The notes under the pieces are model-generated. The model did not search any database. It had not been told where the DNA came from and saw nothing but the letters and a program-made list of their open reading frames with translations. Shown in pieces: positions 1,763 through 40,461 of a DNA stretch of 64,000 nt. The stretch's first letter is position 1. The number at the start of each line of letters is the position of its first letter. Source of the stretch: Candidatus Magasanikiibacteriota bacterium (lineage in GTDB: Bacteria > Patescibacteriota > Patescibacteriia > Magasanikbacterales > UBA922); NCBI GenBank assembly GCA_018651085.1, contig JABIEQ010000010.1, forward strand, positions 1,688 to 65,687. The letters run 5' to 3'. A program made the position numbers and the translations under genes.

Positions 1763-1879
1763 ATTATCATTATTAATGTGACAATACTACTATACTGTAT
1801 TAAGCCTTTTTTGTACATTTCTATCTTTTTGGTCAATATTTTTATGACTGAATTTTACCTAAGTTAAGCTTAAAATACT

Positions 1880-1908
1880 TGACTAGTCTCTTTTTTTATG
1901 ATATTATG
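1880..1908 (+). promoter_or_regulatory. sigma70-like promoter TTGACT-N17-TATTAT feeding islet A gene
   Basis: ttgactagtctctttttttatgatattat lies about 55 nt upstream of the GTG start at 1962. The GC-rich sequence begins right after it. Confidence 0.35.
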
Positions 1909-2441: not shown

Positions 2442-2526
2442 GAGGTCTGGTTATCTTTGGAACTGACCACCCCCGCTACCGGCGGCGCACACCGGAACCC
2501 TCTTGTTAGGCCTAAGAAGAGAATAA

Positions 2527-2556
2527 AAGATCACCTCGATGAGGTGATCTTTTATT
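2527..2556. terminator. bidirectional intrinsic terminator (gatcacctc-gat-gaggtgatc followed by T-run) between islet A gene and polA
   Basis: Perfect 9-bp stem 2529-2549 flanked by A-run and T-run. Confidence 0.6.
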
Positions 2557-2567
2557 CTCTAAATTTT

Positions 2568-5264: not shown

Positions 5265-5366
5265 AGATATAGGGAAAATATTTTTTCACCATATCCATGG
5301 TCACCTCGTCTCCTCCAAACGACGAGGTGGTCCATGCACAGTGCACAGGAGATGAACAAAGACTCC

Positions 5367-5753: not shown

Positions 5754-5889
5754 AGGGTCCTCCTGTGTGTTGTGCATCTCCCTAGTTTGTACGTTCTATG
5801 GTACATGGAAGTCACAGGTACGTAAATAGGGAGAGATCTTGAGTAATTCTCTCTATTATGGTACATTGGACACGCTTGATTTTGCATTT

Positions 5890-5964
<75 letters not shown>

Positions 5965-9518: not shown

Positions 9519-10646
9519 TTACTGACGAATAGGCATGACTATGTATAAGTAATCTTCACGATTGTGTGGACGAAGCATACAGGGAGCATCACTACTATTC
9601 AAAAGAAAATCTCCTTTTTCTTCAAACTGAGATAATCCATCAAGGACATACCGATGATTCAATAAAATGGAATTTTCTTCTCCAGTTATTTCTACATCTA
9701 CTTCTGAGGCATGTTCACCTGTTTGTGTACTTGTTGACGAGACACCAATTGAACTGTTTTCCACGTTTAAATCAAACGACACGGCGTTTACCCCCATGGT
9801 TGTAAACAAACTTGCTGCTTTGATTTTTTTCTTTACGATGTCAACGGGAAATGTTGCTGTTGTTTTAAAGCTTTCAGGAATAATTTGAACATAATCTGGG
9901 TAGGTTCCATCAATAATGCGTGATGTCATCTGTATTCCCTGAAAAAGCATCGCAATTTGATTATCACTAATATGTAATTCAACAGTCATGTCTCCCTCCA
10001 TACCTTTTTGTGAAGAAATCAGTCTTGCCATTTCATACACGGTTTTAGCAGGGATAATACAAGTTACCGTATCAACTCCTCCAGCAAGGGACACTTTCTT
10101 TTCTGCGAGACGGTATGAATCCGTAGCAGCTAAAATTAAACCACTGTATCGTTCTGTTTTAAATCCCATGTACACACCAGAAAGTTCTGGTCGTATTTCA
10201 TTTTTAGCGGCAGCAAAGACCACACTAGAAAGCGCATCTCTAAATGGTGCTGCACTGAGGGTAAATGTTTGAGCTTCTTGGATTGCAGGGATAACAGGAT
10301 ATTCGTCAGCGGGGATGCCTTTTATTTTTGTACTTGAGCTTCCGCTTTTTACAAGGAGTTCATTTCCTTTAAGTGTTACGTCGACTTGTTCACTACCAAG
10401 AAGGTTTACATAATCTGTAAGCGTTTTTGCTGGAACAGTAAACGATCCTGTTTGTTCTATTTTTCCTCTGAGTGTTGTTTGTACGGCTATCTCTAGATTT
10501 GTACTAATAACTTCAATATGCGCTTCGTGCGCTTTTATTAAAATATTAGTGAGTATAGGGAGGTTCACTTGTTTCCCTGCAATACCACTTACTACGGTAA
10601 GTGCATGTGCTAAGTTTTCTTTGGTACACGTAAATTTCATATACAC
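9519..10646 (-). CDS. dnaN: DNA polymerase III beta sliding clamp
   Basis: 375 aa. MKFTCTKENLAHALTVVSGIAGKQVNLPILTNILIKA... has the three-domain clamp architecture. Sits immediately downstream of dnaA. Confidence 0.9.
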   Translation of the reverse strand: MYMKFTCTKENLAHALTVVSGIAGKQVNLPILTNILIKAHEAHIEVISTNLEIAVQTTLRGKIEQTGSFTVPAKTLTDYVNLLGSEQVDVTLKGNELLVKSGSSSTKIKGIPADEYPVIPAIQEAQTFTLSAAPFRDALSSVVFAAAKNEIRPELSGVYMGFKTERYSGLILAATDSYRLAEKKVSLAGGVDTVTCIIPAKTVYEMARLISSQKGMEGDMTVELHISDNQIAMLFQGIQMTSRIIDGTYPDYVQIIPESFKTTATFPVDIVKKKIKAASLFTTMGVNAVSFDLNVENSSIGVSSTSTQTGEHASEVDVEITGEENSILLNHRYVLDGLSQFEEKGDFLLNSSDAPCMLRPHNREDYLYIVMPIRQ

Positions 10647-10922
10647 AGGTTGCTTAAAGGTCTTTTCCTTTTCTTTTTATATATTAAATAGTAGTAGTAG
10701 TAAGGGAGTGGAAAAGTAGGATAACTGTTTTTTTCTTTCCTTCACCCAGCCAATAAATGAACTTATCCCCTTGTTTGCTGACTGTTATATGATTGGCATT
10801 TGTCTGTGGGTATGTTTTTTTCTTATTTTTTTGTGTGTGTATAAGTCGATGTTTTTCCACATGTGATGTCTTTGTTTATTGATGTTGCCCACATAGTTAT
10901 ACGTAGGATTATCCGCGAAAGA

Positions 10923-12338
10923 TTACACAGTGCGCGCTCTTTGCTTTATAAGTTCTAGCTCTTCACGCATTTTTGCACTCTCTTTTATAGCATTTTGAAT
11001 CTTTGTGTGTGCATGCATTGCTGTTGTATGATCTCTTCCTCCGAGTTCTTGTCCAATTGCAGGATACGACATCTTCAGTTCGTCTCGAAGAAGGAACATC
11101 GCGATTTGTCTTGGAAGTGATAATCTTTTTTCTCTACTTTTTCCTCTAATGTCTTCAAGGGTAATGTCGTAAAACTTTACAATAAGTGCTATAAGTTCTT
11201 TTGGTGTAAGGATCTTTTTAAGACTTGTACTTTCAAAGCTTGCAAGTATAGAGTTTACCGTCTCTTTGCTTGGTGATATATTTTTTAGTTCATGATATGC
11301 AATCACCTTGTTTAGTGCGCCTTCAAGTTCTCTAATATTACTTTTTACTTTTTCTGCAATGATTTGAATAATATTTTCTGTTAAACCATAATTTTTTTCT
11401 TGGCATTTTGATTGGAGAATGGCAGCTCTTGTTTCTAGGTCAGGTGCTGAAATGTCTGCAATCATACCCCATTCAAATCTGCTTCGTAGACGATCTTCAA
11501 GTGCAGGGATAGCTTTTGGTGGTCGATCACTTGTAAGGACGACTTGTCTTCCGTGTTGGTGAAGTTCGTTAAAGGTGTGAAAAAATTCTTCTTGAGTTTG
11601 TTCTTTTCCTCCTATAAATTGAATGTCATCAATTAAGAGCAGATCAACATTTCTATATCGTTCTTTAAATTCTTTTGCACGCCCTTCTTTTACAGAAGAC
11701 ACAAATTCATTGGTGAACTTTTCTGAACTCACGTAGAGAATTTTTGTGTTTGGGTTTTCTGTAAGCATTTGGTCAGCAATGGCTTGAAGCAAATGCGTTT
11801 TTCCAAGTCCTACCCCACCGTATATAAATAATGGGTTATAAGCGTCTCCTGGGCGATTTGCAACGGCTTTTGCAGCTGCGTGTGCTAATTCATTTTGTTT
11901 CCCTACAATAAAGGTTGCAAAAGTATACTTTTTATTTAACCCAAACTGTGATGCTGATAACGTTGAGCGTTGATTTCCTGGATTTCGTTGGTATTGATAT
12001 CCTTGTGGTTGTTGTGCTGCTGGTTGTGTTGGGGCTGATGTTGCTCGAATAGGGGCACTTATAACAGCTTCTTGTTCTTCGACGTGTTTGATGTTTCCTA
12101 CGTTGTACTCTACCTTCTTAATAGGTTTTGATGTTACTCGTTCAAGAGATTTTACAACGTCAGAGTGGTATTTCTTTTGGAGCCAGCTTTGTGTAAAGGT
12201 ATTTGGTACAATTATGATAACGTTTCCTTCAGTATATTCACTAATACCGGTGTGTTTAAACCAGGTGGTGAAGTTTGCTTTAGAAATAGAGAGTTCAAAC
12301 TCGGCGAGAACAGCTTGCCAGATTTCATGATTGGTCAT
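10923..12338 (-). CDS. dnaA: chromosomal replication initiator DnaA
   Basis: 471 aa. AAA+ Walker A GGVGLGKTHLL. C-terminal DNA-binding signature LGGRDHTTAMHAHTKI. Confidence 0.95.
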   Translation of the reverse strand: MTNHEIWQAVLAEFELSISKANFTTWFKHTGISEYTEGNVIIIVPNTFTQSWLQKKYHSDVVKSLERVTSKPIKKVEYNVGNIKHVEEQEAVISAPIRATSAPTQPAAQQPQGYQYQRNPGNQRSTLSASQFGLNKKYTFATFIVGKQNELAHAAAKAVANRPGDAYNPLFIYGGVGLGKTHLLQAIADQMLTENPNTKILYVSSEKFTNEFVSSVKEGRAKEFKERYRNVDLLLIDDIQFIGGKEQTQEEFFHTFNELHQHGRQVVLTSDRPPKAIPALEDRLRSRFEWGMIADISAPDLETRAAILQSKCQEKNYGLTENIIQIIAEKVKSNIRELEGALNKVIAYHELKNISPSKETVNSILASFESTSLKKILTPKELIALIVKFYDITLEDIRGKSREKRLSLPRQIAMFLLRDELKMSYPAIGQELGGRDHTTAMHAHTKIQNAIKESAKMREELELIKQRARTV

Positions 12339-12718
12339 AGATATGTGGAAAAAAGGAAGAAATTAGAGGTGAAATATGTGTGTAACCTCATTTTAGCACA
12401 AAACCTTTTTCTAAAAAATTGCTTTACTTAGCCAAAAGTTAGTAATATGGGGATAAGTTGTGCACAGTGTGGATAAGTGTCTCTTCGTTTGTGGTCATTC
12501 TTGTTTATGTGTAGGGCTTTTTTATTTTTTCGGAAAGGTTTGTCTGTCTTTTTGTTTTTTTTATTTTTTCCTTTGTTAAGAGAAAACCTTGACATATTTC
12601 CTCTTTTTCGTTATAGTGATATCGCTTTACAAGTGAGGTCGTGTCGCAAGAGTTATTTGTGATAAAGATCTCCATTTTTTAATATAAAGCGTTGCCGACT
12701 ATTCTATTTTTGTAATAT
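12339..12718. promoter_or_regulatory. divergent rpmH/dnaA intergenic region with DnaA boxes and AT-rich tract; candidate oriC or dnaA promoter
   Basis: Perfect TGTGGATAA at 12468-12476 and GGGGATAAG at 12449. T-rich tract at 12520-12580. Classic rpmH<->dnaA arrangement. Confidence 0.45.
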
Positions 12719-12988
12719 ATGCCTAAAAGAACATTTCAACCAAATCAACGTCGTCGTCGTAAAAAACACGGATTTCGTAAACGAATGGGTACGAAACAAG
12801 GGAAAGTGATATTAAAAAGACGTCGTGTTCGTGGACGTGATACGTTAACCGCTTCATGTGGACTTAGCCTAAAGCAACGTCGAAAGACTGGGCGCAAAAA
12901 AGGGCGAGTAAAGATTACCAAAAAATTTCATTCAAAACGACGAGTGAAAAAAGCGGTAAAGATGGCTGCAAAAGCAAAGAAATCATAA
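12719..12988 (+). CDS. rpmH: ribosomal protein L34 with unusual 44-aa Lys/Arg-rich C-terminal extension
   Basis: First 45 aa [46 protein letters not shown] form canonical L34. The ORF continues in frame to 89 aa. Confidence 0.8.
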
Positions 12989-13042
12989 TCAACGTAAAGA
13001 GCCTCGAAAAAACGGGGCTCTTTTGTTATACTTTTTACTAGT

Positions 13043-13423
13043 ATGGTACCAAGACAATATCGACTTAAACATAAAAAGGATTTTGATGCACTGTTTTCAG
13101 TGGGTCGTTTTGTTGGTGGTGATTGTGTACAGTTGAAAATATGGAAAATTAATTCGGAGACATTTCCAAAACGGAAGTACACGACAGATGATTTGAAAAT
13201 TGGTTTTGTTGTCAGTGTTAAGGTACATAAACGAGCGGTTATCCGTAATCGTATGAAACGTCGTATGCGAGAGGTTGTGCGCCTTATGTTAAAAGAACAG
13301 GCTCTGTTACCTGGATATTTAATTGCCGTTATGGCAAAGCCACAGATTGTTGATGCAACGTATGACGAAATTTCTGAATCAATTACTGCGGTGTTTCAAA
13401 AAGCTGGAATCGTAGTGTTATAA
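13043..13423 (+). CDS. rnpA: RNase P protein component
   Basis: 126 aa basic protein ...VSVKVHKRAVIRNRMKRRMRE... Lies in the conserved position after rpmH. Confidence 0.85.
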   Translation: MVPRQYRLKHKKDFDALFSVGRFVGGDCVQLKIWKINSETFPKRKYTTDDLKIGFVVSVKVHKRAVIRNRMKRRMREVVRLMLKEQALLPGYLIAVMAKPQIVDATYDEISESITAVFQKAGIVVL

Positions 13424-13427
13424 ATAT

Positions 13428-13691
13428 ATGCGTGTATTTCAACGGCTTCTTTTTTTTCCACGATATGTTTTTATGATATCTGTGAGGTTATATCAATTAT
13501 TGTTTTCTCCTGACCATAGTTTTTGGGCAAAAGATGCGTTTCCTGAAGGGTATTGTAAATTTTATCCGACGTGCAGTGAGTATGGTCATCAGGTATTTTT
13601 TAAATACGGTGTATTTCGTGGCGGTATAAAAACCGTGTGGCGAATTTTACGGTGTAATCCATGGTCAGCGGGTGGTATTGATAAACCGTAA
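13428..13691 (+). CDS. yidD: membrane protein insertion efficiency factor YidD
   Basis: YQLLFSP...CKFYPTCSEY...LRCNPWSAGGIDKP matches the YidD signature. Confidence 0.85.
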   Translation: MRVFQRLLFFPRYVFMISVRLYQLLFSPDHSFWAKDAFPEGYCKFYPTCSEYGHQVFFKYGVFRGGIKTVWRILRCNPWSAGGIDKP

Positions 13692-13695
13692 GTGT

Positions 13696-13923
13696 ATGAA
13701 AAACATTTTCGTACGGGTTCTTCCAAGATCTTCTAAAGAGGAAGTTGTTGGGTTTATGGCTAACGGTGTATTAAAAGTGAAGTTGACGACTCCACCAGTT
13801 GATGGGAAAGCGAATGAAAAACTTATTGATCTTCTTTCCTCATATTATAGTGTACATCGTTCTGCTGTCAGTATTGTCTCTGGTCATACGAGTAAAAATA
13901 AACACGTTTCTATAGAAGAGTAA
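13696..13923 (+). CDS. YggU/DUF167 family protein
   Basis: MKNIFVRVLPRSSKEEVVG...LKVKLTTPPVDGKANEKLIDLLS...VSIVSGHTSKNKHVSI fits DUF167. The ATG at 13696 follows the yidD stop. Confidence 0.7.
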   Translation: MKNIFVRVLPRSSKEEVVGFMANGVLKVKLTTPPVDGKANEKLIDLLSSYYSVHRSAVSIVSGHTSKNKHVSIEE

Positions 13924-19614: not shown

Positions 19615-20622
19615 ATGTCTGAATCCCCTTTGTATGAGCCTGTCCATACACAGCACCCTGTTCGAACAGGAGTGCTTTTTGTTGTGGTTAGCATTTTTGT
19701 TGTAGCTATTGTGATAGCTTTTTGGTGGTGGCAGTCTTATGGATTTACCTTTTCTCGTGCTACAGATCTACGACAAGATATTTTGTTACAAGAGGAAGAT
19801 GATACATTCGCTCGTTTACTTGATGGTAAATCAGTGGAATCTCCACAGATTCAAGATGTGCTTGAGGGGATTCCCGATATATCTGACATGCAATATGTGT
19901 TAACTCCAAACAGTGGATGGGAAACATATTTTCCATCTAATGCTCCGACACTGTTGTTAGGAAAAACTCGTTCAGAGGTTCGACAAACATTAGGAGAGCC
20001 TCCTGTATTGCTACGTCAACATACAAATGAATCAATTGAAGAAGATTGGGTGTATTTTCCATACCTGAATGATCCTACTGGGCTTTATATAGATTTTTCT
20101 TCTGGTATTGTTATAAGTAGTAAACTTGATGAGTATAGTGGTTTAAGTAGTCTTGGTGTGGTAGATACATCAGAAGTTGCAGCTGATTACCCTTCGTCTT
20201 TTGATGCTGTGCTTGATTTTGGAGCTGAAAGAACCGTTAGCTCAACATTTTTTAGTCTTTCACCTTCTAGTATTACTGATGTGAAAAAATTTGTGGGTGA
20301 TGGAACTCGCATTCATGAGTTTACTGTTATACAAACGAGAGAAGTTGATTTAAATCGTAGTGTTGGTGGGAGTATTGAACGACTGTATGTCTCTGTGTCC
20401 TTTTACGAAGTTGAAGGAGATGTAGTTTATGAAACAGTATTGTTTGATCCGCAAATTGCTGCATTACAAATTGAAAATGTATCAGTAAACAATGGGAAAA
20501 TGGTTGTGTCTGTGTCTGATTATGAAGACTATGATGATGTTAGTAACAGCACTGTGTTTCGATATACATATGTCCTTTCTTTTTTGGAACAAGAAGTATT
20601 ATTTATAGAAAAAAAAGGATAA
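19615..20622 (+). CDS. hypothetical membrane-anchored extracytoplasmic protein
   Basis: N-terminal TM VLFVVVSIFVVAIVIAFWWW followed by 290 aa of Ser/Asp/Val-rich sequence. No family recognised. Confidence 0.6.
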   Translation: MSESPLYEPVHTQHPVRTGVLFVVVSIFVVAIVIAFWWWQSYGFTFSRATDLRQDILLQEEDDTFARLLDGKSVESPQIQDVLEGIPDISDMQYVLTPNSGWETYFPSNAPTLLLGKTRSEVRQTLGEPPVLLRQHTNESIEEDWVYFPYLNDPTGLYIDFSSGIVISSKLDEYSGLSSLGVVDTSEVAADYPSSFDAVLDFGAERTVSSTFFSLSPSSITDVKKFVGDGTRIHEFTVIQTREVDLNRSVGGSIERLYVSVSFYEVEGDVVYETVLFDPQIAALQIENVSVNNGKMVVSVSDYEDYDDVSNSTVFRYTYVLSFLEQEVLFIEKKG

Positions 20623-20733: not shown

Positions 20734-23328
20734 ATGATCTCATGCTTGGAGGGTTCTCACACCCAAACATCTCATTTTTCTTTTATTTATCGTTGTCTGT
20801 TTGCAGGAATTGTATTTTCAATTGCTGTTTTTTTATTTTTACCTGGTATTTCTTTCGCTGCTGAAGAAGATTTTTCTGATGCTGTTATAGAAGATGCTAT
20901 TATTGATCATGAAGACTTGGGGGTTGAAGCGCCAACAGTTCTCCCTGATCAAAAAGTACGATATGGATTTAAACGATTTGGCCGATTTTTTCAAAAAACA
21001 CTCGCTACTGGCGAAAAGAAACAAGAACTTATTGAACAATTCGCTAATCAAGAACTTGCAGATGCCTCTTTGCTTCTTGAACAAAAAAATACTGAAGGGC
21101 GTGCTGTTAATGCTGCTGTAAAGGCTATTAAACGGGCACAAAAACAATTAGAGAACGTTGAAGTGAAAAATCCAGAGGCTGCAGGAAAGTTTCTTGGACA
21201 TGAAGTAGTTCGTCAAAAAGTATATGATCGTGTTCAAAGACAGTTACTTGATCATGCTCCTGCTGATGTAATTGATGATGCCTTTGAAAGCATTGTTAAT
21301 GCTAAAAAAGAAGCTGCAGAGTACGCAGCTCAAACACTTGGTTCAATTGAAGATCAAGAAGGACTACTTGAAGAAGTAGGACTTGTACTTGAAGATGCAA
21401 AAGGAAGTTCACTTAATGCATTTAAACAAGCTGAAGCGTTACAGTTTTTTGAAGATCATGCCTCTAAAAATAGGCGTGATTTTTTTGATAAAGCAAAAAA
21501 ACGTACTCTTGAACGGTTTGCTGAAAATATTCATGATGAGTTTGTAGGGGGAAATCGTGATATCGTTGATAGGTTTGAGCAGTATGCAAAAGAAATTCCA
21601 GGAGACGAGACAATCCATCTTGAAATTTTTGATACGTTGAAAACTGGTCTTGAAGAATATGATTTTCCAGAAGAAGTGCGAGGGAAAATTGAACAATGGA
21701 AAGATATTTCTGCAAGACGTCATGAACAGGATGCTGAACGTGCGGAAGACCGGTTTGGTGATGATATTGCACATAAAATTTATGAGCGTCGTTTAGAACG
21801 TTTCTCTGACTTAGGTAAAGAAGAAGTAGATGTGTCACGATTTCGTGTGCTTGAAGAACTTCGAACGAGAACTTCTGGAGAAGAAGGAAGAGTACATGCT
21901 GTGGTGCAAGCAGAGCATAAAAAAATGGCAGCAAAATTTAAAGCACAATTTACAGATGAAGGATCACAAAAACTTGCCGATAAGTTTCTTGAACTTTCTA
22001 AAAATCCTGATCCAACATCATTTGCTATTATTAAAGAGCTTGAAAAACAGTTAACTCCAGAACAACGAAAATTTGTTGATGCACTTGACCAACAATTAAA
22101 GCATGAACTTGTGCAACAACGAGCAGAACATGGGGCTTTGTTTGAAGATAAGTTTTTTTCTAATCTTCCTGAACATCAAGATATTTTGCAAGGGTTAGAA
22201 CGAGATTTTCGTGATCATCGTGAAGACTTTTTAGGACCAGCTGACTTATTTGCTTCTTTTGATGGACAAGAACCTCTTCCATTTGTTCAACGACCAGGGC
22301 AACTTGATCAATTTTTTCAAAAAGCATCTTTTGATCAGCAAGTTCGTATTCGACGTGAGCTTGAATCAATTGATGATCCTGAAGCATTTGATCATTTTCA
22401 AGGAAAGTTTGAAGGATTTGAAAATATTCCACCTGAATTTCAATTTTTACAAGGTACTTTTGATGTGAAACGTCGTCAAATTGAAGAACGTCGTCTTCAA
22501 GATAAAGAGGAAGAACATTCAAGAGATACTGAACAAGCTTTTGAAGTTCTTGAAGAAGAATATCGTCAAAAAATTGAGGGTGTTTTAGAAAAAGATCGTG
22601 AAGCTTTTGAACGTCAATTTAATGAAAAACGTAATAACTTGAAGGAACGAGAATTAAAGAATAGACAAGAGTTGTTTGAAGAACGAATTGGAGATAGATC
22701 ATCATTTGATCCATTTTGTGATGAACGTTGTCAAAAAGAGGAAGAACTTTTTATTAGACAACGGTTTGAACAAAATATTGATAATGATAGACGTCGTTTT
22801 GAAGAGGATCAAGATTTTTTTAGACTAGAAAGAGAGAGCCTTGGAGATTTTAATCGGTTATCTGATCAAGATAATGCTTTATTTGAAACACGAAAACGTG
22901 ATGGTACTGAAGGTCCAATTGTTGATCGTCATCAGATTATTAATATCCGAAAATCACCGTCGTCCTCTAGAGGTAGATTAGATCAAAGAGATTCAGATCG
23001 ACATCTCAACTCAGAGTTTGAGCCACCTCGTGATTTTTCAAATCTTCCTTCTAAATCGGAGCTTGAAAGACGGGGTGAATTTAAACAACCAACAGTTGAA
23101 GATCGCCGTGATGAATTTAAACAACCGAGGTTTGAAGATCGTCGCGATGAATTTAAACCAAAAGAACCATTAAGTAATGGTGATACTCGTTCAAAGGTAG
23201 ATTTTAATTTACCTGTGAACCCTCCAAAATTTGAACATAATACCACTGAAAACAAAGATCTTTTTGAAAGAGAGAAGCTAGAAGACGTTAATAGGCCCGA
23301 CTTTGGAGATTCGTTTAAAGGATTTTAA
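20734..23328 (+). CDS. large secreted, extremely charged (E/R/D/K/F/Q-rich) low-complexity protein with C-terminal tandem repeats
   Basis: 864 aa. N-terminal signal-like FAGIVFSIAVFLFLPGISFAAEE. Long runs such as EERRLQDKEEEHSRDTEQAFEVLEEEYRQKIEG. Three tandem EDRRDEFKQP repeats near the C-terminus. Confidence 0.7.
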   Translation: MISCLEGSHTQTSHFSFIYRCLFAGIVFSIAVFLFLPGISFAAEEDFSDAVIEDAIIDHEDLGVEAPTVLPDQKVRYGFKRFGRFFQKTLATGEKKQELIEQFANQELADASLLLEQKNTEGRAVNAAVKAIKRAQKQLENVEVKNPEAAGKFLGHEVVRQKVYDRVQRQLLDHAPADVIDDAFESIVNAKKEAAEYAAQTLGSIEDQEGLLEEVGLVLEDAKGSSLNAFKQAEALQFFEDHASKNRRDFFDKAKKRTLERFAENIHDEFVGGNRDIVDRFEQYAKEIPGDETIHLEIFDTLKTGLEEYDFPEEVRGKIEQWKDISARRHEQDAERAEDRFGDDIAHKIYERRLERFSDLGKEEVDVSRFRVLEELRTRTSGEEGRVHAVVQAEHKKMAAKFKAQFTDEGSQKLADKFLELSKNPDPTSFAIIKELEKQLTPEQRKFVDALDQQLKHELVQQRAEHGALFEDKFFSNLPEHQDILQGLERDFRDHREDFLGPADLFASFDGQEPLPFVQRPGQLDQFFQKASFDQQVRIRRELESIDDPEAFDHFQGKFEGFENIPPEFQFLQGTFDVKRRQIEERRLQDKEEEHSRDTEQAFEVLEEEYRQKIEGVLEKDREAFERQFNEKRNNLKERELKNRQELFEERIGDRSSFDPFCDERCQKEEELFIRQRFEQNIDNDRRRFEEDQDFFRLERESLGDFNRLSDQDNALFETRKRDGTEGPIVDRHQIINIRKSPSSSRGRLDQRDSDRHLNSEFEPPRDFSNLPSKSELERRGEFKQPTVEDRRDEFKQPRFEDRRDEFKPKEPLSNGDTRSKVDFNLPVNPPKFEHNTTENKDLFEREKLEDVNRPDFGDSFKGF
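23060..23170 (+). repeat. three imperfect tandem ~33-nt repeats (EDRRDEFKQP units) inside the charged protein gene
   Basis: cggggtgaatttaaacaacc.. / cgccgtgatgaatttaaacaaccg.. / cgtcgcgatgaatttaaacca. Confidence 0.6.
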
Positions 23329-33113: not shown

Positions 33114-33845
33114 TTACACAATGTTTTCTTTTTTTACAAAGCGCCATCTTCCTGGGGGAAGTGTTCCAATAGTAAGTTTGGCCATTTGTATTCTTTTTAG
33201 TCCTGTGATGCTATATCCAAGTCGTCCAAACATTTTACGGACTTGTCTGTTTTTTCCTTCATGAAGAACAACGGTGACAACTGTTCGTTTTCCTCTTATA
33301 CTTTCATTTGTAATTTTAATTCCTTTTACGCGTTTGTCTCCTAACGTCATTCCTTTTGTTAATATGTCTTTTGCGTCTCTTGTTAGAGGTTTGTCAATTG
33401 TCACCTCATATAGCTTTGTATGTTCATACCGTGGATGGGTGAGTTTGTTTGTAAGTTCTCCATCATTTGTAAGAAGTACTAATCCTTCTGAATCTTTGTC
33501 GAGGCGTCCTACTGGATATACTCTTTCTTTTACGTCTACACCAAATTTTGGTTTAATGTTATTTTCTTTTACCAGTAGATCTATCACAGAAGCTCCTTGT
33601 GCGCTTGTGGTGGTTGTAATGTAATCTACGGGCTTATTAAGAGCAATGTATATGTTTTTCCCTTTCTTAAGGGGTTTTTCTCCAAGTATGTCTACTTCAT
33701 CTTTTTTGGGGTTTACCTTTGTCCCAAATTTTGTTATTACTTTTCCATTTACTTTTACGCGCCCTGCTTCAATGAGTATCTCTGCTTTTCTTCTTGAACA
33801 AATACCGAGGTCTGCAATATGTTTTTGTAGTCGGATAAGGGTCAT
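33114..33845 (-). CDS. rluB: 23S rRNA pseudouridine synthase (RsuA/RluB family) with S4 domain
   Basis: S4 domain LQKHIADLGICSRRKAEILIEAGRVKVNGKV. Catalytic VGRLDKDSEGLVLLTNDG. Confidence 0.8.
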   Translation of the reverse strand: MTLIRLQKHIADLGICSRRKAEILIEAGRVKVNGKVITKFGTKVNPKKDEVDILGEKPLKKGKNIYIALNKPVDYITTTTSAQGASVIDLLVKENNIKPKFGVDVKERVYPVGRLDKDSEGLVLLTNDGELTNKLTHPRYEHTKLYEVTIDKPLTRDAKDILTKGMTLGDKRVKGIKITNESIRGKRTVVTVVLHEGKNRQVRKMFGRLGYSITGLKRIQMAKLTIGTLPPGRWRFVKKENIV

Positions 33846-33913
33846 AGGGGTTGATTAAGTTAGGGTTTTATGGTACATATGGGGTTGGACGCACATTGTT
33901 GTGCGAAGGAGAT

Positions 33914-34204
33914 AACATGGACGATAGATTGTCTGGTCTCAACTTTTTTTATGTGAGGGCGCAATTGTCTTCTTGGGGCTTGATCCCTGACGAAGACAGG
34001 GAGCGTATCCTTCAAGAAGTGGACGCAGCTCGTCAGGATCCACCTAACCTCGAGGAAGAAGATCCTCAGGGTACGAAGGCTTCTATTTCTGATGGGGATC
34101 TCAAGAGGATCCTTGGAGAGCTTCAGGGCCCCTTCAATCAGATGTGGGATGATTGGATACGAGCAACCGCTGAGATGGGAGGGTATGATCTTGACTCCTT
34201 GTAG
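33914..34204 (+). CDS. hypothetical small acidic protein (GC-rich islet C)
   Basis: aaggag SD lies 7 nt before ATG 33914. Product MDDRLSGLNFFYVRAQLSSWGLIPDEDRERILQEVDAARQD.. The TATGGTACAT motif lies about 40 nt upstream. Confidence 0.45.
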   Translation, partial: NMDDRLSGLNFFYVRAQLSSWGLIPDEDRERILQEVDAARQDPPNLEEEDPQGTKASISDGDLKRILGELQGPFNQMWDDWIRATAEMGGYDLDSL

Positions 34205-34536
34205 CCTGTGAAGGGAGCACGGGCTTCGGGTACGACGGTAAGGCGACATGCTTTGCCGTCGTCACCTTGCCTATTTTTGTATAGTAATTATTTTTCTCTT
34301 TTTTAAGTATTTTTCAATAGTGTTATGAAGCGCGATGTAATGCATCGTGTTTTTATATATCTTTAGTTAACCGTATTTAGTCTTTTTTAGCAATGGGGGT
34401 ATATATTGACAGTCGTCTTTATCTATGATAATTATTTTTTTAAGGTCCTGTGTGCATGTATGGGGCTTTGTTATTTGTATTTTTTTGTTTGGGTTGATAT
34501 AGTCTGGGTAGTTTGGGACTTTCATAGGAGGTTCAT

Positions 34537-34852
34537 TGTGGTTAGGAAAAATGGTGTGAAAAGGAAGGGGTTCAAACAAAAAGGGTATGTCGATATTCTT
34601 CGCGAAGGTCCGCGAATGTCTGTTGATGGAACCTTTCTTAGAGAAGGAGATAGGAGGAGACTGGGTGTCCGTTGGTTTACTCGCTTTGAGAAGCGAAGTA
34701 AGGGGGCTCGAGAAATCTTCGTGATTGAAGAACACCGTGGTAGCAGGGAGAAAAGAGTTCTGCACCAGCTGCTGGTTCATCACGATGGACTCTATCGGGT
34801 CTCACGAAGAGGGATCATACTTCTCGAAGAAAGTAACCGCGCTACAGGGTGA
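34537..34852 (+). CDS. hypothetical small basic protein (GC-rich islet D)
   Basis: aggagg SD then GTG 34537. Arg/Lys-rich product ..GVKRKGFKQKGYVDILREGPRMSVDGTFLREGDRRRLGVRWF.. Promoter TTGACA..TGATAAT at 34395-34421. Terminator hairpin at 34921-34950. Confidence 0.4.
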
Positions 34853-34949
34853 GATCTGGGGCGTTAGCGAGGGCTCAGTCTTCGCGTTAGTTATAATAAG
34901 TGTATTGTTCTTACTAACGAAAACACCACCCTTATTGGGTGGTGTTTGG

Positions 34950-35903
34950 TTATGCACGGATGATAGCAAAAGCGATATAGGTAATATATAACAGGACGAA
35001 AAGCCACCCTTGCCATCGTTTGAGTTGGTGCTTGGGTCCAATAAACATGAAGGCAAAAAGAAGAAATGTAATAAAACAGGTAAATAATACGTCAGTATTT
35101 ATTGCAACATTAAATGGAAGTGGTTTGATGAGTGCTGTAATTCCTAATATCCAAAAGACATTGAAAATGTTTGATCCAATAGCATTTCCAATAGCAAGAT
35201 CAGTGTGTCCTTGGCGTATTGCTGATACTGTGGTTGCAAGTTCTGGTAGCGATGTTCCAATTGCTACAATGGTAAGACCAATAATTCTTTCACTTAACCC
35301 GGCCTGTGTCGCTAGAATTATTGCATTATCTACAATCCATTTTCCTCCAAGGACAAGACCAACAATTCCTATAGCAAACATGAATAGTGATGTTGACCAG
35401 TTGTATGTTTCTACTTCTTCTTTTTCTGTCTCTACCTTAGAGATGCCATAGACATGGTAAAGAAATATGATGAAAAATAAGAGGAATATCATTCCGTCAG
35501 CACGGCTTAATACGTTTACTGATGTGTGATTTAAAAATCCATCGTTTCCCATGATAGCTACAACAAAAATTGCGAGTAGGGCAAAGGGTATTTCTTTGTA
35601 AGTAGTGCCCCTTTTTATTTTTAAGGTTTTAATTATCGCTCCAATTCCTAGAATAAGAAGGATGTTTGCCATGTTACTTCCGATAATGTTGGCAATTGCT
35701 AAATCAGTAGTTCCTTTAGTAGCTGAAAGAAGGTTTACAACAAGTTCTGGTGCAGATGTACCAAAGGCAACAACAGTAAATCCAATTGCAATTGCTGAAA
35801 TACCAAATCGTTTTGCGATAGATGCTGATCCACGGACAAGCATTTCTGCTCCACCAATTAAAATGGCGAGACCAAGAATAAGAAAGAGAATAGGGATAAT
35901 CAT
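34950..35903 (-). CDS. CaCA-family Na+/Ca2+ exchanger (YrbG-like)
   Basis: Two alpha-repeats GTSAPELVVNL and GTSLPELATTV. 10 TMs. Confidence 0.8.
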   Translation of the reverse strand: MIIPILFLILGLAILIGGAEMLVRGSASIAKRFGISAIAIGFTVVAFGTSAPELVVNLLSATKGTTDLAIANIIGSNMANILLILGIGAIIKTLKIKRGTTYKEIPFALLAIFVVAIMGNDGFLNHTSVNVLSRADGMIFLLFFIIFLYHVYGISKVETEKEEVETYNWSTSLFMFAIGIVGLVLGGKWIVDNAIILATQAGLSERIIGLTIVAIGTSLPELATTVSAIRQGHTDLAIGNAIGSNIFNVFWILGITALIKPLPFNVAINTDVLFTCFITFLLFAFMFIGPKHQLKRWQGWLFVLLYITYIAFAIIRA

Positions 35904-36030
35904 AATGATTTTAATATTGCGATAAGTATATCGTTCTTTGTTGTTTCTCTCAACTTTTTGCGGTTTTTTGTATTTTTTGGTAGGGTGTAAGTAACTTTCA
36001 AATCAACCAGCTTTTGTGGGAGGGGCTTAC

Positions 36031-36282
36031 ATGACGACTTTGGATAGAGGCCATTATTCATACGGAACTGTGGTTCAGGTTGAGAAGGATGGAGCGCTGA
36101 CTTTGTATTTTCAGTACCACCCTGTTCCCGGTCGTGAACATTGGATTGTCGTTGTGCCCGAAGAAAAAAGAGGATACCTTCGGGTGGGTTCGAGTTTCTA
36201 TCAGCGGCGTCCCTTTAAGAGTGAGGGAATCACCATCGTCGAGAGGTATTTCACACAGTTGGTTCAGGTTCACGGAGGGTAG
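36031..36282 (+). CDS. hypothetical small protein (GC-rich islet E)
   Basis: MTTLDRGHYSYGTVVQVEKDGALTLYFQYHPVPGREHWIVVVPEEKRGYLRV.. Composition is distinct from the flanks. Confidence 0.4.
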   Translation: MTTLDRGHYSYGTVVQVEKDGALTLYFQYHPVPGREHWIVVVPEEKRGYLRVGSSFYQRRPFKSEGITIVERYFTQLVQVHGG

Positions 36283-36322
36283 GATTCTGTTTGAAAGTGT
36301 TAGCGGCGTATATTACTCCGCT

Positions 36323-37279
36323 TCACTGTTTTATAATGATATATAGGATTGCTCGGAAAGTGGATCTGACAATAAACCAGTGGGCTTTTATACTAAACAA
36401 TATGGTTTGCCACTTGGAAAGGTGTATTTCTCCCCATTTTATATTGATAGCTTTTTTAAATAATAAAAAATCTTTTGGGGTAAGTGACCCTTTTGTGTGG
36501 TCAAGTTGTATATGGAAAAGGGCACTAAGGGACATTGTAAATTCTTCAAGGAGTATTTTTTTGTTTTTTTCTATTTTTTCGTCTCTATTCATTTTTTTGT
36601 ATTGATCAATGGTTCCTAGGAGTCCGTCTATATGATATAGGAGCGCTTTTGTGGTGTAGCTCACAGACTTCTTTGTCGAAATTGGGCTTAAAAGTATCCC
36701 AAATTTACTTAAAAATAATGGTGCGAGGCTAATACGAAGTCGATCGAGTTTTGTAATAGTAATATCTATCTCTTGTCTAATGTCTCGTCCATAAAGGACT
36801 TCTCCTTCTTGCTTAAATTTTAAAAAGACAGATCGTTGAGGAATAAGAAGATGTTTTCCAATATTTATAAGAGGATTGTCGCTTTTTATATTTCCTTTTT
36901 TCCAATCAATGTCCCCTTTTACAAATACAAACACTGGGACGTAAAGAAAACTTGCCGCTTCAAGTGTTTGGAGGGTTTTTTCTAGTATTTTTTCTTCCTT
37001 AGAACTTGTTGAAAGTGATTCGTGGAATCCTAAATCTTTATATTGATTCGTAATGCGCCAAAAAATGTCCGTTGCCGTTTTTTCTATAAATGCTTTGTCT
37101 TCTTTATTATAAATTTGGATAATAATATCAACATCACTTTTATTTGGGACGAATTCTTTTCGAACGGCTGAGCCGTAGATGATAATAAAATCTATTTTGT
37201 CTGCGCACGTTGCAACAACATTATTTCTAAATGCTCTAATAAATTGCCAGACTCGTTCTTGTGCGTGTTTTTTGTTCAT
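36323..37279 (-). CDS. Pol-beta superfamily nucleotidyltransferase with about 200-aa C-terminal helical domain (ANT/KNTase- or CD-NTase-like architecture)
   Basis: hG[GS]x10DhDh motif IIYGSAVRKEFVPNKSDVDIII. Third acidic strand FVFVKGDID. No HEPN Rx4-6H motif found. Confidence 0.7.
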   Translation of the reverse strand: MNKKHAQERVWQFIRAFRNNVVATCADKIDFIIIYGSAVRKEFVPNKSDVDIIIQIYNKEDKAFIEKTATDIFWRITNQYKDLGFHESLSTSSKEEKILEKTLQTLEAASFLYVPVFVFVKGDIDWKKGNIKSDNPLINIGKHLLIPQRSVFLKFKQEGEVLYGRDIRQEIDITITKLDRLRISLAPLFLSKFGILLSPISTKKSVSYTTKALLYHIDGLLGTIDQYKKMNRDEKIEKNKKILLEEFTMSLSALFHIQLDHTKGSLTPKDFLLFKKAINIKWGEIHLSKWQTILFSIKAHWFIVRSTFRAILYIIIKQ

Positions 37280-39460: not shown

Positions 39461-39550
39461 ATGGAGTATTATTTCACATTTTTTTGTAAAAAGAAAACGA
39501 CCAATTTTGTCGTTTTCTTTAGATCTTTACTATCAATATTATTTCATAGC

Positions 39551-39600
39551 ATAGATCTCCTCGGTCAGCGCGTAGGGAGCTACGCGCTGACCTGGTTGAG
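39551..39600. terminator. two GC-rich hairpins (ggtcagcgcgta-gggagc-tacgcgctgacc; gaggaggc..gcctcctc) downstream of islet F gene
   Basis: 12-bp perfect stem plus a second 8-bp stem. Confidence 0.5.
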
Positions 39601-39609
39601 GAGGCCTGT

Positions 39610-40272
39610 TCATGGTTGAGCCTCCTCCTTCCCCTTGTTGGTGTCGATTTTTTTTGTGCCTACGACGACTTTTCCTCTTTTGAAGATGATATCGAATCGG
39701 GTTGCCCCTCGTCTCATCTTCTGGATGTCGGGCTTCAATAAGGTAAGCCTCACGCTTTTTCCCAGTCCGTCGGGGTTAAAGGTGAAACGTCGTTTCATCT
39801 CAGCTCCATGCAGTCCCTCAGGTGCTTCGAAGCGAATAAACACTTGGAGAGGTTCGTGCATACCGCCGCCTGCGAGTAGCATGGTGCGTCCTCCTTGAGA
39901 AGTCACGCTGTATATGAAGACGGTGTGCCCTTTGGCTACTGCATCTTCGAGTACAAACATTCTTTCTTCAGTTTGAACAGCCCTCTTCTGGAGTCCTTCC
40001 ATCATGTTCTCGAGTTGTCCGATCTTCTCGAGAAGGGTGATCGCTTCAGAAGACAGCTCTTCAGGCTCTTCCTCTGGTACGACCTCCATGATGCTTGCCA
40101 GAGCATCTTGTTGGGCTTTCAGGATGGTCTTGATGACTTCTCCTTTTTTGCCCTTTGGAGACACTCCTAAACTTTCGGCGATTTGCCTTACATAGGTGGC
40201 GTCTTCGTTTCCCTTGGCCTTGCTTTGGCCTAAGGTGAGTCCTTTGAGCTCTTGCTCGGTCCACTCTTTCAT
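39610..40272 (-). CDS. hypothetical protein with Rho_N/SAP-like N-terminal motif (GC-rich islet F)
   Basis: ATYVRQIAESLGVSPKGKKGEVIKTILKAQQ resembles the Rho N-terminal helix-hairpin. A beta-rich C-terminal half follows. About 50 % GC versus AT-rich flanks. Confidence 0.5.
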   Translation of the reverse strand: MKEWTEQELKGLTLGQSKAKGNEDATYVRQIAESLGVSPKGKKGEVIKTILKAQQDALASIMEVVPEEEPEELSSEAITLLEKIGQLENMMEGLQKRAVQTEERMFVLEDAVAKGHTVFIYSVTSQGGRTMLLAGGGMHEPLQVFIRFEAPEGLHGAEMKRRFTFNPDGLGKSVRLTLLKPDIQKMRRGATRFDIIFKRGKVVVGTKKIDTNKGKEEAQP

Positions 40273-40461
40273 GGCTTAACCTCCTTGTGGTTAGCCGGTT
40301 GATCTAAGGGGAAAGCAGTATATATATATGTATCTATATACAACATCCACCTTAGCTTTGGCCGACAGATCAAATTAACATGATATTGGTGTTTTTGTCA
40401 ATATCTTTTACTTCTTGTTTGAGGTATACTTTTTGTATAGTTTTTTAATATATAAGGAGAT

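Follow-up and report, generated by a model that had tools for sequence, protein, structure and literature searches.

GC-rich single-gene islets in the AT-rich core chromosome of a Magasanikiibacteriota bacterium as probable recent imports

Introduction

How do single small genes of about 50% GC come to stand between the ordinary genes of an AT-rich chromosome? The question is raised by a 64,000-nt stretch of DNA, referred to here as the window, from a Candidatus Magasanikiibacteriota bacterium of the Candidate Phyla Radiation (CPR) (assembly GCA_018651085.1, contig JABIEQ010000010.1, positions 1,688 to 65,687). Six short GC-rich segments in this window, termed islets i1 to i6, each hold one small open reading frame (ORF). 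We consider, with a probability of about 0.7, that each islet is a self-contained foreign protein-coding transcription unit that reached its intergenic spacer in the core chromosome by a separate and recent import, in a moron-like manner.

This reading follows from the composition, codon usage and Shine-Dalgarno (SD) signals of the islets, from their absence in relatives, from their reproducible assembly and from the lack of any homologue outside the species for i1, i2 and i6. The same evidence gives good support to the original prediction, made on the DNA sequence alone, that small foreign genes had been acquired repeatedly. Its second suggestion, an undescribed class of selfish or accessory cassettes, was not borne out: the islets have no sequence, repeats or attC sites in common, and i6 is found in one genomic context.

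Results

Composition and codon usage

GC content was computed in 150-nt sliding windows (mean 0.372, sd 0.053), and an islet segment was defined as a stretch over which this value was sustained at 0.46 or more. Six segments of 0.36-0.88 kb and 47-52% GC were obtained where the original prediction had placed them, against a background of 37.2% GC for the window (Table 1). The right end of the i2 peak is explained by a native tRNA-Cys gene that lies there. Other GC bumps (8.5-9.3 kb, 16.4-16.7 kb, 26.6-27.0 kb and others) fall inside native genes; GC at third codon positions (GC3) is normal in these, so they are driven by amino-acid content.

Each islet was found to contain one small ORF of 83-220 aa, as predicted, with the starts refined here. 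The GC content of the islet ORFs is 0.48-0.58, that of native intergenic DNA 0.33. GC3 ranges from 0.43 to 0.69 in the islet ORFs and from 0.148 to 0.349 in the 47 native ORFs, and the two ranges do not overlap. Codon usage was compared by log-likelihood (lnL): each islet favoured the pooled usage of the other islets over native usage, by +12.6 to +54 lnL, and eight small native genes put through the same test all gave the reverse result (-25 to -52 lnL; 8/8). Examples of the shift are ATC for Ile (71% in islets versus 14% in native genes), CCC for Pro (43% versus 7%) and AAG for Lys (50% versus 19%). The GC-rich codon usage that had been read from the sequence applies to all six genes.

Coding-type position statistics were seen in all six islets, with GC at the first codon position exceeding that at the second and a first-position G of 0.35-0.39. 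The 220-codon frame of i6 is improbable by chance (approximately 3e-5 per frame at 50% GC, by our own estimate); ORF length alone is no proof for the three shortest islet ORFs. By the Muto-Osawa and Lawrence-Ochman relations, codon-position GC in the islets would be close to the equilibrium values of genomes of 50-58% GC. On the same relations, the lowered GC3 of i4 alone might suggest partial amelioration.

Translation signals

An SD of 5-7 nt, of the AGGAGG type and at a spacing of 5-7 nt, precedes five of the six islet genes; i1 has only AGGA, so that the good SD described earlier as usual in the islets holds for the other five. Native genes differ sharply. At the annotated starts of 47 native genes, 37 had no SD, nine had a 4-mer and one had a 5-mer, and when any in-frame start in the first 20% of the gene was allowed, three of the 47 reached an SD of at least 5 nt. 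The difference between 5/6 islet genes and 1/47 native genes corresponds to p of approximately 1e-5 by our own hypergeometric estimate. SD 5-mers occur at about 1% of islet positions, and their correct placement in five of six genes is therefore not a by-product of GC content.

Native starts, for example at 5264(-), 33845(-), 35903(-) and 54492(+), follow A/T-rich runs of the type ...TATAT ATG. This pattern implies SD-independent initiation in this Magasanikbacteria lineage. The anti-SD motif is missing from the 16S rRNA of about half of Parcubacteria (PMC9297842), and the SD-poor native genes are consistent with this reported loss. The 3' end of the 16S rRNA gene was sought in the window and in the loci of relatives as a check on the anti-SD, and only one distant locus has one. 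With or without an anti-SD in the host, the islet genes bear a signal for translation of which the native genes make no use.

Homology searches

The six proteins were searched with hidden Markov models (HMMs) from Pfam, NCBIfam, PHROGs and PADLOC. None gave a match above threshold (i2 gave sub-threshold family matches only), which agrees with the earlier statement that they belong to no recognisable family. Known anti-phage defence or toxin-antitoxin proteins were considered and rejected, with no match in PADLOC, Pfam or NCBIfam. The idea that an islet is part of a foreign gene, read out of frame, was likewise rejected, since ten alternative-frame ORFs had no Pfam match.

Proteins i1, i2 and i6 were further compared with 5.8 billion protein clusters, and each returned only the cluster of its own species. 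Within the protein clusters of the islets, variants amounted to single substitutions, differing notation of the start codon or a frameshift. When i6 was run in full with HMMER against 1.84 billion representatives, the scan returned i6 itself and a single 23-residue helix-turn-helix (HTH)-like match, to a repeat of a giant protein that Pfam calls Sigma70_r4. Searches of viral contigs with i6, i1 and i2, and of phage records with i3, i4 and i5, gave no match. The six islet proteins are new families.

Assembly and population context

Marine samples, among them Saanich Inlet at 135-150 m, have repeatedly yielded the host population in NCBI, ENA and JGI assemblies, and its longest contig is 863 kb. 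Fourteen contigs from different assemblers and samples are 99.93-100% identical to the window over 24.9-50.3 kb, including the borders of i3-i6. Junctions are identical in SPAdes, MEGAHIT and JGI assemblies made from different samples and years. Variation among the 14 contigs amounts to a handful of single-nucleotide polymorphisms (SNPs) and one 6-bp indel; one SNP (39572) lies within the 3' hairpin of i6, and none lies in an islet ORF. Misassembly is excluded by these 14 independent, near-identical assemblies. A single genomic context was recorded for i6 across 23 contigs; the other islet proteins were recorded on 12-22 contigs, and wherever they are covered these five islets stand in the same invariant population contigs. 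The islets interrupt no gene and are fixed in a nearly clonal population.

Comparison with relatives

The neighbourhood of the Na+/Ca2+ exchanger (CaCA) gene was compared across 174 loci of relatives (1.9 Mb), all of them distant; i3-i6 are the islets that lie in this neighbourhood. No similarity to an islet protein or to islet DNA was found in these loci. The gene order rumA ... CaCA ... rluB-AI-2E is conserved among relatives, and in one of them (L030) CaCA and rluB are adjacent. The comparison of syntenic loci proposed at the outset shows the islets of this neighbourhood to be absent from the nearest relatives. The CaCA-rluB interval varies among loci L015-L035, from adjacency in L030 to 0.7 kb in L017 and 2-5.5 kb elsewhere. 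In other relatives it holds native AT-rich genes (ahcY, a CBS/DUF21 gene and an alkylation-repair gene), and in L015 it also has two different, unrelated GC-rich ORFs.

A crude filter was applied to 42 AT-rich CPR loci (669 kb) and returned 19 GC-rich ORFs, approximately one per 35 kb, compared with one per 11 kb in this window. An SD of at least 6 nt was present before 53% of these 19 ORFs versus 8% of 679 native ORFs. The GC-rich ORFs of relatives are mutually unrelated, with one weak pair among the 36 GC-rich ORFs that were compared. Judged by eye, a few look like ordinary enzymes (ClpP-like, DapB-like) and would be conventional transfers from GC-richer bacteria. GC-rich patches with no convincing ORF or Rfam match were noted in L016 (5496-6111 and 8999-9920) and L018 (8290-8831); these may be decayed imports or undescribed RNAs. 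A LOOT RNA (RF03000, 75 bits) was found at 3637-3761 of L039, a contig of related Magasanikbacteria.

Architecture of the islets

An islet unit comprises a short GC-rich leader with an SD, one ORF and usually a strong 3' hairpin, the SD and the hairpin each being present in five of six. The 3' untranslated regions (UTRs) of five islets fold with z-scores of -2.6 to -7.0. Islet i5 has no hairpin of note, and the earlier statement that each islet ends in a GC-rich hairpin is accordingly limited to the other five. TTGACA/TATAAT-type promoters had also been proposed for several islets. The sites before i1 and i4 score 10/12 against the consensus, and the proposal otherwise found weak support: promoter-like hits in the islet regions numbered 23 and 17, compared with 19.2+/-4.7 and 11.0+/-3.3 in shuffled sequence.

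Integrases and attachment repeats were absent across the whole window, as first reported, and so were transposases, phage genes and pseudogene debris. The islets have no terminal repeats in common, no flanking direct repeats and no target duplications. attC-like sites (RYYYAAC...GTTRRRY) were sought by a simple regular-expression and folding test, not by a covariance model; two complementary core pairs were found in the window, and neither folds stably. No islet-to-islet DNA similarity was detected at a word size of 7, and no protein similarity is shared. A miniature inverted-repeat transposable element (MITE) or insertion sequence was rejected on the lack of terminal inverted repeats, of a target-site duplication and of multiple copies. 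Only i2, among the six, abuts a tRNA gene.

The motif TATGGTACAT occurs as three exact copies in the 64 kb, all in spacers beside i2 and i3, the two by i2 lying on the + strand. Tolerating one mismatch raises the count to 10 sites, where 4.1+/-1.7 would be expected. The motif may be an operator, or a native promoter element of the extended -10-like type (TTGAnT-N17-TACAT).

Rfam at gathering threshold detected only two tRNAs in the window, and a permissive scan (E <=10) of 33800-36400 gave nothing credible. Whole units fold with z-scores of -3.8 to -6.0 in five of the six islets. When the ORFs were folded alone and compared with dinucleotide shuffles, i6 (39610-40272) gave -4.5 and i1 -2.4, and all ORFs other than i6 fell between +1.6 and -2.4. 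Folding ORFs and 3' UTRs separately thus traces the striking whole-unit values mainly to terminator hairpins and to the mixing of GC-rich with AT-rich parts.

Table 1. Positions of the islets, their parts and adjoining native features in the window
Feature	Position	Strand	Description
i1 segment	1902-2563		GC 0.494
i1 promoter-like site	1879..1907	+	TTGACT-17-TATTAT (TG-extended); 10/12 consensus match only; AT-rich flank, 31% GC
i1 ORF, 159 aa	1962..2441	+	GTG start, weak SD (AGGA), GC 0.50, GC3 0.48
i1 terminator	2518..2560	+	perfect 20-bp hairpin and T-run, between convergent i1 and polA; 3' UTR z -5.4
i2 segment	5268-6010		GC 0.518
i2 3' hairpin	5302..5329	-	9-bp GC-rich stem CACCTCGTC/GACGAGGTG, no T-run, z -2.6
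i2 ORF, 128 aa	5367..5753	-	SD-led ATG (AGGAGG, 5-nt spacer), GC 0.58, GC3 0.69
TATGGTACAT	5797-5806		exact copy, between i2 and tRNA-Cys
TATGGTACAT	5857-5866		exact copy, between i2 and tRNA-Cys
tRNA-Cys (native)	5890..5964	+	adjoins i2
i3 segment	33856-34313		GC 0.474
TATGGTACAT	33869-33878		exact copy, between rluB and i3
i3 ORF, 95 aa	33917..34204	+	SD AAGGAG, 5-nt spacer, GC3 0.51
i3 terminator	34232..34279	+	13-bp GC-rich hairpin then T-run, z -4.4
i4 segment	34526-34983		GC 0.467
i4 promoter-like site	34406..34435	+	TTGACA-18-AATTAT; 10/12 consensus match only; 28%-GC spacer
i4 ORF, 104 aa	34538..34852	+	GTG start, SD AGGAGGT, 5-nt spacer, GC3 0.43
Two hairpins after i4	34867..34947	+	z -4.3
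Na+/Ca2+ exchanger (CaCA) gene (native)	34950..35903	-	GC3 0.26, without SD, between i4 and i5
i5 segment	35979-36337		GC 0.465
i5 ORF, 83 aa	36031..36282	+	SD GGAGG, 7-nt spacer, GC3 0.51; without strong terminator
i6 segment	39491-40367		GC 0.482
i6 3' hairpin	39563..39592	-	perfect 13-bp GC-rich stem, z -7.0
i6 ORF, 220 aa	39610..40272	-	SD AAGGAGG, 7-nt spacer, GC3 0.54

The individual units

The i1 protein is Gly-rich and predicted to be all-beta, with an N-terminal hydrophobic segment resembling a signal peptide. The i2 protein is basic, and its hydrophobic core fits about two transmembrane segments; an in-frame ATG upstream, at 5777, would extend it to 136 aa. Islet i2 stands on the same strand as polA and immediately upstream of it (5265-5366), with approximately 38 nt from the i2 hairpin to the polA start, so that transcription from the i2 promoter may continue into polA. 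Through an imperfect inverted repeat of 18 nt (5334-5351 / 5760-5777, 83% complementary), the start-codon region of the 136-aa form of i2 pairs with the sequence just after the i2 stop; a long-range stem formed in this way could enclose the entire ORF.

The i3 product is acidic (pI 4.1), and its gene is divergent from native rluB, 71 nt away. An antisense frame in i3 is longer than the sense frame, but it has no SD and appears junk-like; the sense frame has AAGGAG-N5-ATG and a terminator. The i4 product is very basic (pI 11.3). The second hairpin after i4 (about 34920-34947) lies immediately against the stop codon of native CaCA, which converges on i4, and is probably shared by the two genes. 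In contig L006, a 6-bp deletion (35896-35901) at the 5' end of CaCA shifts its called start (297 versus 317 aa). The i5 ORF is not called as a gene by most annotation pipelines.

Near its N terminus the i6 protein has a marginal HTH-like motif (residues 23-45); in a low-confidence model this is followed by a helical linker and then by a C-terminal half rich in beta structure. A second, AT-rich hairpin with a T-run follows i6 at 39490-39520. The i6 ORF is bracketed by an 18-nt direct repeat containing the SD and ATG (39609-39626 and 40268-40285). At the downstream copy, which overlaps the stop codon (ATGA), a 24-codon ORF (39541-39613) starts and extends across the terminator hairpin; this small ORF may be what is left of a donor gene that lay downstream. 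In one assembly variant, P0020 (230 aa), a frameshift fuses the i6 ORF with the 24-codon ORF.

Chromosomal setting

The window belongs to the core chromosome: from the origin region it has dnaN, dnaA, rpmH, rnpA and yidD, and it also contains polA, a penicillin-binding protein gene, the trigger factor gene, ruvB, ribonucleotide reductase, rluB, the CaCA exchanger gene, rumA, recA, ftsK, rpoB, rpoC and ruvC. The origin neighbourhood (9519-13923) comprises dnaN(-), dnaA(-), a 380-nt intergenic gap (12339-12718) and then rpmH, rnpA, yidD and a DUF167 gene (+). Cumulative GC skew is lowest near 8-10 kb, and i1 and i2 are approximately 6.5-10 kb away from the origin region.

Large native AT-rich ORFs with no Pfam match (E <=1e-5) were noted at 20734-23328 (864 aa), 19615-20622 (335 aa) and 36323-37279 (318 aa). 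Since such native ORFs exist, missing annotation does not by itself mark an islet; composition and the SD do.

Discussion

Probable separate import and the points against it

If the islets were imported one by one, their source would be SD-using bacteria or their viruses of about 48-58% GC, and the genes would not yet have drifted to the composition of the host. At least two sources are indicated, because i2 is much GC-richer than the other islets. The DNA would have entered by uptake or on a transient mobile element and been fixed by illegitimate recombination, and strong deletion pressure in a streamlined genome would have left only a single tolerated or useful gene at each site. Transcription would start in the AT-rich flank. 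Use of the SD would depend on the lineage having kept its anti-SD; if this has been lost, the SD would be a relic of the donor. The products would be accessory, namely a secreted Gly-rich beta protein (i1), a small membrane protein (i2) and, for the other four islets, small soluble proteins. That they act at the cell envelope, in host/phage interaction or on nucleic acids is a guess.

Several points weigh against separate import. No donor lineage was found, and all three of the deeply searched proteins are without a homologue outside the species; i3, i4 and i5 were compared with the large protein collections at the level of 90% clusters only. With neither a donor nor a viral match, import is deduced from signatures alone. 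The promoter consensus matches are not clearly above chance. The population is clonal, and a test of selection by the ratio of nonsynonymous to synonymous substitution rates (dN/dS) is therefore not available. In the nearest genomes and metagenome contigs CaCA identity is at most 72-73%, so that empty sites cannot be aligned at the nucleotide level and the insertions cannot be dated. AlphaFold models made without alignments had a pLDDT of 42 (i6) and 37 (i1) and were unusable.

Alternative explanations

The islets could instead be the last survivors of larger imported elements, such as a prophage, an integrative element or a long fragment, whittled down by deletion. We hold this to be rather unlikely, and it would change the route of entry, not the foreign origin. 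It would account for i3 and i4 being adjacent and co-oriented and filling the whole rluB-CaCA spacer, and for i2 adjoining a tRNA gene, a classic integration site. Relatives have multi-ORF GC-rich blocks (L046 12.4-14.1 kb, L039 13.9-16.0 kb, L030 0-6.2 kb) as well as single-ORF islets, and CPR genomes are streamlined. It fits poorly with a window that has no integrase, transposase, phage gene, att-like repeat or pseudogene debris, and with an i3-i4 spacer of 28% GC, which resembles host intergenic DNA at 33%; the islets also differ in GC (0.48-0.58) and are scattered across 38 kb. A native origin, with the islet genes forming a fast-evolving or de novo class whose GC content and SD are kept by selection (e.g. 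for mRNA stability or special translation), is distinctly improbable. Genes born from DNA of 33-37% GC are predicted to have native composition, whereas the islet ORFs have 0.48-0.58, and the shift reaches GC3 and synonymous choice, beyond amino-acid content. Such an origin would explain the missing donor homologues and the recurrence of the GC-rich and SD combination in related CPR genomes, but the GC-rich ORFs of those relatives share neither similarity nor position. The transcripts with their UTRs do fold better than shuffled sequence, as does the i6 ORF (z -4.5), but the ORF-only values of the other five (+1.6 to -2.4) are unremarkable. A further proposal, which we regard as a long shot, is that GC-rich, SD-bearing orphans in SD-independent CPR form a distinct and renewed class handled differently by the translation machinery, for example silent unless the anti-SD is exposed, translated by a ribosome sub-population, or, more radically, carried as payloads for expression in the SD-using bacterium that the episymbiont lives on. 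If this were true, the recurrence of GC-rich, SD-bearing orphans in relatives would reflect function and not mere recency of import.

A single undescribed family of mobile cassettes, integron-cassette-like or MITE-like and inserting without an integrase in cis, was suggested by the shared architecture (a promoterless-looking GC-rich block of SD, ORF and 3' hairpin, scattered in intergenic spacers) and by the three exact copies of TATGGTACAT, each beside an islet. It is very unlikely. The islets share neither DNA at a word size of 7 nor protein similarity, terminal repeats or attC-like R''/R' pairs; i6 keeps to one genomic context in its 23 contigs and the other five to the same invariant contigs; and TATGGTACAT lies in the AT-richer flank by tRNA-Cys and native rluB, with no copy at four of the islets. 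Slightly less credible again is the view that the islets are GC-rich structured non-coding RNA genes with incidental ORFs. GC peaks often mark RNA genes in AT-rich genomes, both tRNAs of the window do so, and the whole-unit z-scores of -3.8 to -6.0 in five islets point the same way. Most of that signal comes from terminator hairpins and mixed composition, however, and Rfam returned no match, even at E <=10 for the three-islet cluster. The SDs are well placed, codon positions are of the coding type, one ORF runs to 220 codons, and the islets are not conserved in relatives. Chimeric assembly or contaminant insertion might be suspected in a metagenome-assembled genome with abrupt composition shifts, but it can be given hardly any credence, with identical junctions in SPAdes, MEGAHIT and JGI assemblies and islets placed precisely between intact genes with gene signals of their own.

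Relation to known systems

Separately imported units of this kind invite comparison with phage morons, a concept of Hendrix and Juhala, which are defined by deviant GC and by a promoter and terminator of their own (PMC3594210). As with morons, each islet is a single extra gene between conserved neighbours, with differing GC, a terminator-like 3' hairpin of its own (in five of six), apparently its own promoter, and a function that in morons too is usually obscure or accessory. Morons belong to phage and prophage genomes, whereas the islets stand in the core chromosome by oriC, polA and rluB, with no phage genes in 64 kb, and their promoters are consensus matches only (i1, i4). Individually transferred genes and islands have been reported to make up to 13% of Patescibacteria genomes (PMC12455944). 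The islets agree with these transfers in host group and in gain by horizontal transfer without obvious mobility genes, for which uptake by competence or pili was proposed; they differ in that the published transfers were established by donor-recipient homology and the present case by composition, codon and SD signatures.

The islet genes are short, species-restricted and homologue-free, like ORFans that were judged imported in E. coli (PMC13012023) and in the gut microbiome (PMC11293555). Integron cassettes are similar in having a promoterless-looking single ORF followed by a hairpin, placed between genes; unlike them, the islets have no attC-like sites, integrase or array, and their hairpins are ordinary terminator-like stems. 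Classical ORFans are reportedly (Daubin and Ochman 2004) AT-richer than their host, whereas the islets are much GC-richer than theirs and carry an initiation signal that host genes lack. In the literature on CPR, no paper describing such a pattern of GC-rich, SD-bearing islets was found.

Significance

In kind, the islets are ordinary horizontal acquisition. What lifts them above the routine is their density (six of about 53 genes in the window), the lack of homologues of i1, i2 and i6 in very large collections, and the clean split between SD-led islet genes and native genes with no SD. For bacterial orphan genes it is a persistent question whether they were imported or arose in place, since their very definition leaves no homologue to trace. 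Here, two marks of import that need no homologue are available, codon composition and an SD that host genes do not use. The SD test is applicable genome-wide in SD-poor lineages (CPR, Bacteroidota and others) as a measure of the influx of foreign orphans, and it raises the question of whether CPR bacteria that have lost the anti-SD can translate SD-led foreign genes at all.

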